Part shown: one piece after another, positions 36,001 through 39,000 of the stretch
How the letters are laid out: every line of letters begins with the position of its first letter
Position numbering within the stretch: the first letter of the stretch is position 1
Assembly (NCBI RefSeq): GCF_965641715.1
Contig: NZ_OZ282453.1
Length of the DNA: 64,000 nucleotides
Source of the DNA: Escherichia coli
GTDB taxonomy: Bacteria > Pseudomonadota > Gammaproteobacteria > Enterobacterales > Enterobacteriaceae
Strand: one strand, 5' to 3'
Made by a program: the position numbers

Positions 36001-39000
36001 ATACCATTGATGACACCACGAAAGAAGTTATCTGGAAATATCAGCAAGAAAACAAACCTGATGACAAACCGAAGCTGGAAGTTGCCAGCTGGCAGGAAGA
36101 AGTTGAGGGTAAACAGGTAACTCAATTCGCCTTTATCGATGAAGCCGACCACAAAACGCCTGAGTCACTGGCTGCGGCGAAGAAGAGGATTCTGGACGCG
36201 TTCCCAGGGCTGGAAGAGTGTAAGGATTCTGACTACCACTACGAGGTCAACTGTCTGGAATATCGTCCTGGCACGGGGGTTCCGGTTACTGGTGGCATGT
36301 ATGTTCCACAGTATACGCAACTAAGCCTTAACGCCGACACGGCAAAAGCGATGGTGCAGGCTGCGGATTTAGGCACCAACATTCAGCGTCTGTATCAGCA
36401 TGAACTCTACTTCCGGACCAATGGTCGCAAAGGTGAGCGTCTGAGCAGCGTCGATCTGGAACGTCTGTACCAGAACATGTCGGTCTGGCTGTGGAACGAT
36501 ACGAGCTATCGTTATGAAGAAGGCAAAAATGACGAGCTGGGCTTTAAAACGTTCACCGAGTTCCTGAACTGCTATACCAACGATGCCTATACCGATGGCA
36601 CACAGTGCTCCGCAGATCTGAAAAAATCGCTGGTCGATAACAACATGATCTACGGTGACGGTAGCAGCAAAGCGGGCATGATGAACCCGAGCTATCCGCT
36701 CAACTATATGGAAAAACCGCTGACGCGCCTGATGCTGGGGCGTTCCTGGTGGGATCTGAACATCAAGGTTGATGTCGAGAAGTATCCGGGGGCGGTATCG
36801 GCTGAAGGTGAGAAGGTTACTGAAACCATCAGCCTGTACTCGAATCCGACCAAATGGTTTGCGGGTAACATGCAATCTACTGGCCTGTGGGCTCCGGCTC
36901 AGAAAGAGGTCACCATTGAGTCTACTGCGTCAGTTCCTGTGACTGTCACCGTGGCGCTGGCCGACGATCTGACCGGACGCGAGAAGCATGAAGTCGCGCT
37001 GAACCGTCCGCCAAAAGTGACGAAAACCTATGATCTGAAAGCCAATGATAAGGTGACCTTCAAGGTTCCTTACGGTGGTCTGATTTATATCAAGGGCAAC
37101 AGCCCAACGAATGAGTCAGCCAACTTCACCTTTACTGGCGTGGTAAAAGCACCGTTCTATAAAGACGGCGCATGGAAAAACGCTCTGAACTCACCGGCTC
37201 CGCTGGGTGAGCTGGAGTCAGACTCTTTCGTCTACACCACACCGAAGAAGAACCTTGAGGCCAGCAATTACAAGGGCGGTCTGGAACAATTCGCTAAAGA
37301 TCTGGATACCTTTGCCAGCTCGATGAATGACTTCTATGGTCGTAATGGCGAAAGCGGTAAGCACCGGATGTTTACCTTTAAAAACTTGCCGGGTCACAAA
37401 CACCGTTTCACCAACGATGTGCAGATCTCCATCGGTGATGCGCACTCTGGTTACCCGGTGATGAACAGCAGCTTCTCGCCGAACAGCACCACGCTGCCGA
37501 CGACGCCGCTGAACGACTGGCTGATCTGGCATGAAGTCGGTCATAACGCCGCAGAAACGCCGTTGACTGTACCGGGTGCTACTGAAGTTGCGAACAACGT
37601 GCTGGCGCTGTACATGCAGGATCGTTATCTCGGCAAGATGAACCGTGTCGCTGACGATATTACCGTTGCGCCGGAATATCTGGAGGAGAGCAACGGTCAG
37701 GCATGGGCGCGTGGCGGTGCGGGTGATCGTCTGCTGATGTACGCACAACTGAAGGAATGGGCAGAGAAAAACTTTGATATCAAGAAATGGTATCCAGAAG
37801 GCTCTCTGCCAGCGTTCTACAGCGATCGTGAAGGGATGAAAGGCTGGAACCTGTTCCAGTTGATGCACCGTAAAGCGCGCGGCGATGATGTTGGCGACAA
37901 GACCTTTGGTGGCAAGAATTACTGTGCCGAATCCAACGGTAACGCTGCGGACACGCTGATGCTGTGTGCCTCCTGGGTCGCCCAGACGGATCTTTCGGAG
38001 TTCTTTAAAAAATGGAATCCGGGCGCGAATGCTTACCAGTTGCCGGGGGCGAGCGAGATGAGCTTCGAGGGCGGTGTGAGCCAGTCGGCTTACAACACGC
38101 TCGCGTCACTCGATCTGCCGAAACCGAAGCAAGGGCCGGAAACCATTAACAAGGTTACCGAGCATAAGATGTCAGCCGAGTAAGCCTGTATGCCGGATAA
38201 GGCGCTCGCGCCGCATCCGGCATGAAATAAGGCGCACCGGGTCAACACATATGCCCGATGCGCAAGCTTATCGGGCCTACAGAGAGGGAAAGCTGCGTTT
38301 ATTTGCGTTGGCAGACACCTGTAGGCCGGATAAGGCGCTCGCGCCGCATCCGGCATGAAATAAGGCGCATCGGGTTAACACATATGCCCGATGCGCCATC
38401 TTATCGGGTCTTCAGGGAAAGCCGCGATTACTTGCGTTGGCAGATACCTGTAGGCCGGATAAGGCGTTTTACGCCGCATCCGGCAAGTTACAACAAACAA
38501 CCTTTAACCATGCTTTTTGATGTTTTTCAGCAATACCCCGTGGCGATGCCCATACTGGCTACCGTCGGAGGATTGATCATCGGCAGTTTTTTGAATGTGG
38601 TGATTTGGCGTTACCCCATCATGCTGCGCCAACAAATGGCGGAGTTTCATGGTGAAATGCCGAGTGCGCAGTCAAAAATAAGCCTTGCGCTACCGCGTTC
38701 GCACTGCCCACATTGTCAGCAGACCATCCGGATACGTGACAATATTCCGCTGCTCTCCTGGCTGATGCTCAAAGGGCGCTGCCGTGATTGTCAGGCGAAA
38801 ATCAGCAAGCGTTATCCGCTGGTGGAGTTATTGACGGCACTCGCTTTTTTGCTGGCGAGCCTGGTGTGGCCGGAAAGTGGATGGGCGCTGGCGGTGATGA
38901 TATTATCCGCCTGGCTGATTGCCGCGAGCATCATCGACCTCGATCACCAATGGCTGCCCGATGTTTTTACTCAGGGCGTATTGTGGACGGGACTAATTGC

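Follow-up and report, generated by a model that had tools for sequence, protein, structure and literature searches.

A two-unit REP/BIME hairpin array between sslE and pppA in Escherichia coli

Stabilisation of upstream mRNA and attenuation of read-through are established roles of REPs (PMC3333891, PMC6061677, PMC12306157), and a preliminary description of the locus discussed here was on firm ground in invoking both. REPs are also combined in atypical BIMEs, which are defined as chimeric mixtures of REPs and linkers that occur in tandem copies and vary at a given locus between strains (PMC3333891). The REP/BIME array between sslE and pppA shares with the atypical BIMEs of E. coli (Gilson, Bachellier, and Hofnung; summarised by Ton-Hoang et al. 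2012, PMC3333891) a palindrome of 30-40 nt, a GTAG/CTAC foot, and a mismatch in the stem. It also shares tandem copies that resemble one another at each locus, a copy number that varies between strains, and an extragenic position near the 3' end of a gene. The array is unlike those BIMEs in that the Y REP is paired not with z2 but with a short z-type REP whose tail carries G at its variable position (ATCGGGCCTAC), and in that its 28-nt head-to-head linker lacks an IHF site and carries an inverted partial REP head. Because of this inverted head, the second strong mRNA hairpin of each unit is predicted to form from the linker and the z-head together and not from a self-folded z REP.

Composition and class of the array

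The window analysed here is a 64-kb stretch of E. coli DNA. In its ORF list, sslE (yghJ) occupies 33603-38183 on the plus strand with a TAA stop at 38181-38183, and NCBI PGAP names the product 'lipoprotein metalloprotease SslE' at homologous loci. The 5' end given by the ORF caller is a TTG; translation probably begins a few codons 3' of it. The prepilin peptidase gene pppA (269 aa; Pfam domains A24_N_bact and Peptidase_A24) follows on the same strand at 38510-39319, with its ATG at 38510. The operon sslE-pppA-gspS-gspC...M is tightly packed apart from the sslE-pppA spacer, which measures 326 bp against 65, 17, and 29 bp for further spacers and is filled by the array.

The repeat is genuine: it is a REP/BIME hairpin array of the ordinary E. 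coli kind, here in a copy-number variant with two units. Tandem Repeats Finder places a single array at 38185-38485 (period 133, 2.3 copies, 88% matches, 2% indels, score 459), in agreement with the earlier estimate of about 2.3 copies of a roughly 130-bp unit of REP palindromes at 38186-38490. Two pairs of direct copies, each with 92% identity, are recovered by repeat search (38185-38285 with 38318-38418, and 38285-38337 with 38414-38466). The sequence CGCCGCATCCGGCA is present in three copies at spacings of 133 and 130, and units 1 and 2, aligned globally, agree in 118 of 134 columns. With at most 2 mismatches allowed, the window contains 13 occurrences of the REP tail motif CTTATCNGGCCTAC, compared with 0.8 expected; five occurrences are inside the array, and those outside it fall at three further intergenic loci. 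In the array, three Y-type REPs are separated by two short z-type REPs of the opposite orientation. Matches of 31-35 out of 35 for the Y REPs and 26 out of 30 for the short z REP, against references taken from PMC11208160, bear out the REP/BIME identity proposed at the outset.

From 5' to 3', the array begins with Y-type REP 1 (38186-38223, minus strand), which matches the Y reference TGCCGGATGCGGCGTAAACGCCTTATCCGGCCTAC at 31 of 35 positions and in the canonical minus-strand reading runs GCCGGATGCGGCG...CTTATCCGGCATAC. On the mRNA strand it appears as GTAT plus palindrome: K-12 and NC101 have GTAG at REP 1, whereas in the two-unit, 326-bp allele this is mutated to GTAT. The REP 1 hairpin (38189-38224; -24.0 kcal/mol, z = -4.45) contains the 2-nt internal mismatch typical of REPs and starts 6 nt past the sslE stop codon, which ends at 38183. 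Head-to-head linker 1 (38224-38251, plus strand, 28 nt) carries part of the short-z REP head in inverted form, GGCGCACCGGG, a segment that can pair with 38253-38263 as an inverted repeat (local fold -17.6 kcal/mol). Next comes short z-type (z1-like) REP 1 (38252-38283, plus strand), TGCCCGATGCGCAAGCTTATCGGGCCTACAG with a CTAC tail, which matches the short REP reference GCCTGATGCGCTACGCTTATCAGGCCTACG at 26 of 30 positions and the long z2-type reference at 24 of 37. Tail-to-tail linker 1 (38284-38318, plus strand) has little structure (38283-38322 folds at -8.4 kcal/mol, z = -0.09).

The second unit repeats this arrangement. Y-type REP 2 (38319-38356, minus strand; 32 of 35 to the Y reference) reads GTAG plus palindrome on the mRNA strand and gives an RNA hairpin at 38325-38354 (-20.9 kcal/mol). 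The inverted repeat in head-to-head linker 2 (38357-38384, plus strand) forms, with the head of the next REP, a predicted 12-bp hairpin at 38364-38397 (-25.5 kcal/mol, z = -5.24). Short z-type REP 2 (38385-38413, plus strand; 22 of 30 to the short REP reference) has a degenerate tail, ATCGGGTCTTC in place of ATCGGGCCTAC, with 2 mismatches to the tail motif. Tail-to-tail linker 2 (38414-38447, plus strand) is a direct repeat of linker 1 with 92% identity, and the partial third unit consists of Y-type REP 3 (38448-38485, minus strand), which is identical to the Y reference (35 of 35) and gives a hairpin at 38454-38484 (-21.7 kcal/mol, z = -5.05).

These parts have the general properties of REPs. 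They are imperfect palindromes of 30-40 nt, with short z REP 2 as the degenerate one. GTAG feet lie at 38321-38324 and 38450-38453 and a CTAC foot at 38277-38280; z REP 2 has CTTC. Each of the three Y REPs is predicted to fold into a hairpin with a symmetric internal loop of 2 x 2 nt (AA opposite GC), and a stem mismatch is needed for TnpA-REP binding (PMC3333891). The array lies wholly between the sslE stop and the pppA start, and at megablast sensitivity its Y-REP portion matches 5 places in the median genome and as many as 14 in others. The segment between the Y REPs is locus-specific (median 1 place per genome).

Neither canonical BIME class accommodates the array. BIME-1 consists of a single y and z1 with a long L linker that has an IHF site; the array is tandem, and the IHF consensus WATCAANNNNTTR, with up to 1 mismatch, has no match in 38184-38509. 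BIME-2 consists of y and z2 in tandem with a short S linker. Here the z2 reference is matched at 24 of 37 positions, against 26 of 30 for the short type, the head-to-head linker is 28 nt, and tandem copies are the sole feature in common. Lacking both an IHF site and a z2 partner, the array is classed as an atypical BIME: y and short z REPs are joined by non-canonical linkers in 2.3 tandem units, and both linkers and copy number vary between strains.

Other element types were considered and rejected. With a permissive E-value, the Rfam family naRNA4 (RF02564) matches the three Y REPs on both strands at 31-37 bits, and the best score of 37 bits is under the gathering threshold of 59.5. Sub-threshold matches on both strands therefore indicate REP sequence and not a member of the curated RNA family. 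It should be noted that naRNA4 (REP325) is itself derived from Y-type REP sequence, as are the weak matches of the array, and sits at a different locus. A CRISPR or other spaced-repeat system does not fit, since the 133-bp units are contiguous and without unique spacers. The K-12 RefSeq feature table (NC_000913.3) has no repeat_region at the sslE-pppA locus.

The array also misleads gene prediction, as the preliminary description had recognised. The mechanical ORF at 38258-39319 (353 aa) is in frame with pppA and exactly 84 codons too long, the true ATG being at 38510; the spurious N-terminal extension (38258-38509, plus strand) is wholly within the REP array. Pfam domains begin at residue 105 of the 353-aa ORF, corresponding to residue 21 in the 269-aa protein. 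A real N-terminal domain was rejected because the 84-aa extension alone matched no Pfam family and PGAP starts at the downstream ATG, annotating pppA at 810 nt in every homologous locus fetched.

The array within the sslE operon transcript

According to PMC5012682 (citing Yang 2007), sslE, pppA, and the gsp genes form one polycistronic unit, and co-transcription of the cluster in BL21(DE3) is documented by tiling arrays (PMC5435950). The placement of the array between two co-transcribed genes, asserted from the start, thus agrees with published work. A scan of 37800-38800 found no sigma-70-like promoter on either strand and no intrinsic terminator on the plus strand; one terminator-like match on the minus strand is within chance expectation. 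The hairpins are followed by CAUGAAAU or AAGUUACA and have no U tract. A literature search found no transcript-end, stability, or expression data for the sslE-pppA junction and no RNA-seq values across sslE, pppA, and gsp.

RNA from 38170-38520 folds at -155.6 kcal/mol, compared with -119.2 +/- 5.3 for shuffled sequences (z = -6.9), and local hairpins in the array range from -21 to -25.5 kcal/mol. The global minimum-energy fold joins distant REPs to one another; the set of local hairpins is therefore a co-transcriptional assumption. The array is followed by the pppA leader AGTTACAACAAACAACCTTTAACC (38486-38509, plus strand), which is A/C-rich, unstructured, and without a Shine-Dalgarno sequence. 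Folding of the leader region 38486-38560 gives -9.3 kcal/mol (z = +0.58). The C/G ratio is about 1.7 in 38460-38557, which exceeds the window's 95th percentile of 1.53, and judged by composition the leader opens a C>G stretch at which Rho could load. The position of this stretch just past the last REP fits the pattern of rut sites downstream of REPs (PMC6061677).

Based on these features, we infer that the array is a length allele of an atypical BIME whose transcribed hairpins probably act as an exonuclease barrier and, together with partial loss to Rho, leave more sslE message than pppA-gsp message; our confidence in this reading is somewhat better than even. The array would be transcribed within the polycistronic mRNA and fold into four or five stable hairpins, which would stop the 3'-to-5' exonucleases PNPase and RNase II. 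Transcripts that end or are cut downstream would therefore be shortened to a stable RNA that ends after sslE. The spacer is long, structured, and untranslated, and together with the unstructured C>G leader and the pppA start without a Shine-Dalgarno sequence it may also cause some Rho-dependent loss of read-through. The net outcome would be an sslE message more abundant than the pppA-gsp message, while the first hairpin, 6 nt past the stop, may slightly damp sslE translation. Attenuation by BIMEs was reportedly described by Espeli et al. in 2001. An influence of the array on the balance between SslE and the secretion machinery, the central suggestion of the preliminary description, is plausible by analogy with other REPs. 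The duplication would add only two hairpins to a barrier present in every allele, and what the second unit contributes is therefore probably little.

Against the Rho component, the C>G stretch is of limited length and runs into the pppA start, at which Rho would face competition from ribosomes.

Length alleles and alternative readings

The spacer occurs as alleles of 326, 197, 194, 163, 147, 139, and 129 bp. Among 5,426 complete E. coli genomes, the unit-to-unit junction that marks the two-unit form is present in 134 (~2.5%), and about 1,049 contain one full unit or more. Most genomes that carry the locus have internally deleted arrays of 129-163 bp, in which just one or two hairpins are left intact. 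For example, the BL21(DE3) allele is 163 bp. K-12 has one unit fewer than the two-unit allele, and its single unit resembles unit 1 at the left and unit 2 at the right, as expected from unequal crossover. The deletions coincide with short direct repeats such as ATCGGG. The alleles most likely arose by unequal or illegitimate recombination between REPs, and TnpA-REP, the REP-associated transposase, possibly helped to generate them; its apparent sequence prerequisites are present in the array (GTAG, a stem mismatch, and CCT|AC in iREP). The two-unit haplotype is 99.1-100% identical across backgrounds that include a separate species-level Escherichia lineage, while the flanking coding sequences differ by up to 9%. 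A scan of genome contigs with CCTTTAACCATGCTTTTTGA found one locus only, in Escherichia sp. E1V33.

Two parts of the spacer persist throughout. The first Y REP is found in every allele examined, no more than about 6 nt from the sslE stop and, in the 139-bp alleles, only 2 nt from it. Alleles differ by a double change from C-G to T-A in the upper part of the REP 1 stem (GGCGCTCGCGCC versus GGCGTTCACGCC), and this change preserves the hairpin. The last ~35 nt before pppA are retained in every allele, and the pppA leader is kept in all of them except for single-base variants.

The comparison of copy number across strains, which had been proposed beforehand as a check, points to low constraint, with the two-unit form in 134 of 5,426 genomes. 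Frequent deletion argues that the extra unit is dispensable, and array length is clearly not essential, because BL21(DE3) with its 163-bp allele still co-transcribes the cluster and most arrays have internal deletions. A less probable reading is that the array is selfish or junk REP DNA carried as a neutral passenger in a tolerant spacer, without a meaningful effect on sslE or the T2SS, and that the two-unit form is a transient state of duplication and deletion. The extensive 129-197 bp deletion series, the rarity of the two-unit form, and the deletions at short direct repeats would all be expected of such a passenger, as would continued co-transcription despite the decayed allele of BL21(DE3). 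The sequence between the Y REPs, being locus-specific, belongs to no dispersed functional family. The array has also tolerated an insertion: short z REP 1 includes ATCGGGCCTAC (38270-38280), an exact match to the IS621 bridge RNA target (sequence from PMC11208160), and strain 53 carries a natural IS621 insertion at exactly this position. Against neutrality, the first Y REP beside the stop is kept in every allele with a compensatory stem change, the last ~35 nt before pppA are kept likewise, and the two-unit haplotype is nearly invariant between diverged flanks. Moreover, the hairpins are as stable as terminator stems, and such structures generally block exonucleases in E. coli (PMC6061677).

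The position of REP 1 suggests a further effect, which is compatible with the exonuclease barrier and which we hold only tentatively: the first hairpin may stall terminating ribosomes, leading to mRNA cleavage, trans-translation, and less SslE. In the account of Liang, Rudd, and Deutscher 2015 given by PMC12306157 and PMC4513850, REPs no more than 15 nt from a stop codon cause ribosomes to stall and reduce the expression of the gene before them, with nrdAB as an example. The -24 kcal/mol hairpin at 38189-38224, which starts 6 nt after the TAA and is retained beside the stop in all alleles read, falls within this distance. However, by the same account in PMC12306157, about half of all E. coli REPs do so, and the agreement is therefore weak evidence. 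Only REP 1 is relevant to this effect, which is silent on the duplication. The lower SslE level that it would predict from that account opposes mRNA stabilisation; the direction is opposite to the stabilisation idea of the preliminary description, which overlooked this mechanism.

Any further role appears much less probable. A DNA-level element, acting by gyrase, Pol I, or IHF binding or as a topological insulator in a long H-NS-silenced operon, is unlikely in our judgement. The type of BIME reported to bind gyrase is the y/z2/S BIME-2, and the array, without a z2 partner, is not of that type; it also has no IHF consensus at up to 1 mismatch, and its size is highly variable. What speaks for a DNA-level element is that, in the summary of PMC3333891, REP/BIMEs bind IHF, Pol I, and gyrase and insulate against transcription-induced supercoiling, and that PMC5012682 places the sslE promoter region under H-NS and StpA repression. 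Similarly improbable is a tunable polarity dial, in which the series from one to five hairpins (129-326 bp) would set lineage-specific SslE:T2SS ratios and the two-unit haplotype would be selected or spreading by recombination. An independent functional RNA (naRNA4-like, nucleoid-associated) or an internal promoter for pppA-gsp can be set aside as highly improbable: the 31-37 bits on the three Y REPs are well under 59.5 and fall on both strands, as for any REP, and the absence of a sigma-70-like site on either strand in 37800-38800 agrees with the single polycistronic transcript reported in PMC5435950 and PMC5012682.

Significance and comparison with REPs of other operons

The finding matters little beyond annotation hygiene: ORF callers should keep pppA out of the array, and the sslE-pppA spacer should be recorded as a length-polymorphic BIME. 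Perfect matches to the bridge-RNA target of IS621 are rare, and the array contains one of them, which makes it a natural site for splitting the operon. The operon is otherwise conserved and virulence-associated, and SslE, a mucinase secreted by T2SS-beta, is a vaccine candidate. If the array modulates polarity, the natural allele series would be a handy system for counting the hairpins needed for stabilisation or attenuation, and the effect might contribute to the differences in SslE level among ExPEC strains (differences: PMC5012682).

Under the favoured reading, a hairpin barrier combined with partial Rho-dependent loss, two groups of known REPs are among the closest counterparts. The REP-associated Rho-dependent 3' ends (Peters et al.; Dar and Sorek 2018, PMC6061677) combine, as here, a stable stem-loop that lacks a U tract with a C>G stretch behind it, and the arrangement of the array would allow Rho to terminate further downstream and the transcript to be trimmed as far as the hairpin. 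Such 3' ends are mostly at the ends of operons, whereas the sslE-pppA array is internal. Because ~12 kb must still be transcribed for the T2SS, termination at the array can only be partial.

The intercistronic REPs of malEFG and hisJQMP (Higgins 1982; Newbury 1987), as presented in PMC6061677 and PMC12306157, likewise lie between co-transcribed genes. In those accounts the upstream gene of the mal and his operons, like that of the sslE operon, encodes an abundant exported product and the downstream genes encode membrane machinery. The exonuclease barrier and differential stability have been shown experimentally for the mal and his REPs according to the same sources, and the corresponding role at sslE-pppA is proposed by analogy. 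Unlike the mal and his REPs, the sslE-pppA array varies naturally between strains, from one hairpin to five.

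Architecture of the sslE–pppA repeat array

Tandem Repeats Finder reports one array at 38185–38485, with a period of 133, 2.3 copies, 88% matches and a score of 459. A second repeat search of the array agrees with this register, and the two full units, aligned globally, match in 118 of 134 columns. By all three approaches, the repeat that a preliminary description placed between sslE and pppA is real and lies where it was placed. As the sslE ORF stops with TAA at 38181–38183 and pppA starts with ATG at 38510, the array takes up the entire 326-bp spacer. With 0.8 occurrences expected in the window, the REP tail motif is found 13 times, five of them inside the array; the RNA of 38170–38520 folds more stably than shuffled controls by 6.9 standard deviations. 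The structure of the array is far beyond chance. It is the largest REP/BIME locus of the window (five REPs); three more lie at about 5848–5930, 59106–59149 and 62392–62520, with two, two and three REP tails, respectively.

REPs were assigned by scoring against references taken from PMC11208160. Read along the mRNA strand, a unit is made up of four parts: a Y-type REP, a head-to-head linker of 28 nt, a short z-type REP, and a second linker, tail-to-tail, of roughly 35 nt. The three Y-type REPs (38186–38223, 38319–38356 and 38448–38485) are in the 'GTAG + palindrome' orientation on the mRNA strand and score 31/35, 32/35 and 35/35 to the Y reference. The short z-type REPs score 26/30 (38252–38283, with a CTAC end) and 22/30 (38385–38413, degenerate) to the short REP reference. 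The Y REP hairpins have predicted folding energies of -20.9 to -24.0 kcal/mol and show the REP-typical internal 2 x 2 mismatch. Part of the z-REP head is repeated in inverted form in the head-to-head linker; as a result, the second strong hairpin of unit 2 (38364–38397, predicted at -25.5 kcal/mol) is formed by linker and z-head and is not a self-folded z REP.

The REP matches and the 2.3 tandem units bear out the identity given earlier, a duplicated REP/BIME array. Under the definitions of Ton-Hoang et al. 2012 (PMC3333891), it is an atypical BIME: its composition is chimeric, it occurs in tandem copies, and it differs among strains. BIME-1 and BIME-2 are both ruled out by the same definitions. 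The array contains neither an IHF consensus nor a z2-type partner REP, and no U tract follows any of its hairpins. A scan of the array region found no intrinsic terminator on the + strand and no sigma-70-like promoter on either strand. Rfam hits to naRNA4 (REP325) appear on both strands and reach only 31–37 bits, below the gathering score of 59.5.

The short z REP of unit 1 includes, at 38270–38280, ATCGGGCCTAC, identical to the sequence that the target loop of the IS621 bridge RNA specifies (Durrant et al. 2024, PMC11208160). This sequence is rare in E. coli: BL21(DE3) has two used sites, versus 129 of ATCAGGCCTAC, the natural IS621 target with one mismatch (PMC11208160). The same two-unit array is found in E. 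coli strain 53 (NZ_CP048359.1), where an IS621 copy occupies exactly the ATCGGGCCTAC position (880–900 and 1775–1795 in the fetched loci L013 and L015) with a CT core at either junction, as expected; the insertion splits sslE from pppA–gsp. The z REP tail in the BL21(DE3) spacer is CCTGG, thus that spacer is not an exact IS621 target.

Spacer alleles and the two-unit haplotype

Of 5,426 complete E. coli genomes, 3,111 cover at least 80% of a 25-kb query spanning the cluster (30001–55000). The best match is only 97.7% identical, hence the lineage of the window has no close relative in this collection. Spacer alleles, named by length in bp, are as follows: 326 in the window, PapRG-04-4 (identical), RM10042 (1 SNP) and Escherichia sp. 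E1V33 (2 SNPs); 197 in K-12; 194 in NC101; 163 in BL21(DE3), MLI108K3 and NCTC11151; 147 in CV839-06 and an O158:H23 strain; 139 in 536 and O104:H4; and 129 in FDAARGOS_1250 and strain 2-1. The unit 1/unit 2 junction reaches at least 80% coverage in only 134 of the 5,426 genomes (2.5%). The full segment between Y REPs is found in 1,049 and is locus-specific (median one place per genome). An evenly spaced sample puts the locus in about two thirds of genomes; as a rough estimate, 2.3 units are present in about 4% of the genomes with the locus and 1.3 units in about 25%, and about 70% carry remnants with internal deletions.

The deletions sit at short direct repeats inside REPs. The single unit of K-12 resembles unit 1 on its left side and unit 2 on its right, as expected of unequal crossover between two units. 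In all alleles read, the first Y REP lies directly 3' of the sslE stop codon and the last ~35 nt upstream of the pppA ATG are retained; a double C-G to T-A change between alleles in the upper stem of the first Y REP keeps pairing. In the 139-bp alleles, an 8-nt deletion takes out the spacer between stop codon and first REP, so that the REP adjoins the TAA and its stem starts about 2 nt after it. The strain comparison proposed in the preliminary description found that unit number varies, and the population data suggest that the extra unit is dispensable.

The two-unit haplotype (38152–38540) is 99.1–100% identical among four backgrounds (the window and the fetched loci L002, L003 and L014), which include a separate species-level Escherichia lineage, E1V33 (L014). 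The adjoining sslE 3' ends are 90.7–97.8% identical and the pppA 5' ends 94.8–100%. Against E1V33, the near-identical block is 38152–38540 in a strongly mosaic locus that is 94.5% identical overall; the divergence of the remaining allele classes is similar to that of their own flanks. The simplest explanation of these identities is a recent origin followed by spread via short recombination tracts, and selection could be behind the invariance. The sslE body (35900–38180) is also strongly mosaic against E1V33, at 76% to 100% identity per 100-nt bin, as recombination or diversifying evolution could produce in this surface antigen.

Operon context and the pppA leader

The genes around the array are sslE, pppA, gspS-beta (yghG), and then gspC onward; the remaining spacers at the cluster start are 65, 17 and 29 bp, versus 326 bp for sslE–pppA. 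The literature agrees with the earlier placement of the array inside an operon. In ETEC, sslE and 13 downstream genes form one polycistronic mRNA, according to the statement in PMC5012682 citing Yang et al. 2007, and BL21(DE3) tiling arrays show co-transcription of sslE, pppA, yghG and yghF with the T2S genes (PMC5435950). The allele of this latter strain is the decayed 163-bp one (3932–4094 of its locus, L017, NZ_CP053602.1).

The mechanical ORF 38258–39319 is in the frame of pppA and exactly 84 codons longer, confirming the over-extension noted previously. The extension is spurious, because the prepilin-peptidase Pfam domains start at residue 105, the 84 added residues have no family match in a Pfam search, and NCBI PGAP annotates pppA as 810 nt long in all homologous loci fetched. 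There is no recognizable Shine-Dalgarno sequence before pppA in 38486–38512 (ACAACAAACAACCTTTAACCATG). Downstream of the last REP, the leader has a C/G ratio of about 1.7, which exceeds the 95th percentile of the window. It is also A/C-rich and unstructured (fold z = +0.58), suggesting that initiation is weak or depends on S1 and that the leader is exposed to Rho.

Possible effects on expression

The preliminary description proposed that the array could set the level of SslE relative to the secretion machinery. REP hairpins reportedly withstand 3'-to-5' exonucleases and stabilize upstream mRNA (Newbury 1987; Khemici & Carpousis 2004). Stem-loops are also points to which Rho-dependent transcripts are trimmed, with rut sites just downstream (PMC6061677), and transcription attenuation by BIMEs is possible (Espeli 2001, as cited in PMC6061677 and PMC12306157). 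The local anatomy, an unstructured leader with C>G and without a Shine-Dalgarno sequence, fits this exonuclease-barrier/Rho picture. On the best reading, by analogy with established REP biology, the array would supply a protected 3' end for the sslE cistron and impose mild polarity on pppA–gsp; the duplication would contribute only two hairpins to a barrier found in every allele.

The main rival reading sees the array as a neutral passenger. All but the first REP have often decayed among alleles, and BL21(DE3) co-transcribes the cluster despite its short spacer; array length is therefore not critical. A second known mechanism, overlooked earlier, would act in the opposite direction. Terminating ribosomes are reported to stall at REPs that lie at most 15 nt from a stop codon, with reduced expression of the upstream gene (Liang 2015, as cited in PMC12306157 and PMC4513850). 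The first REP hairpin starts 6 nt past the sslE stop codon and may lower sslE in this manner. The array is a known kind of element with known behavior, and the proposed regulatory role is a fair analogy to known intercistronic REPs.
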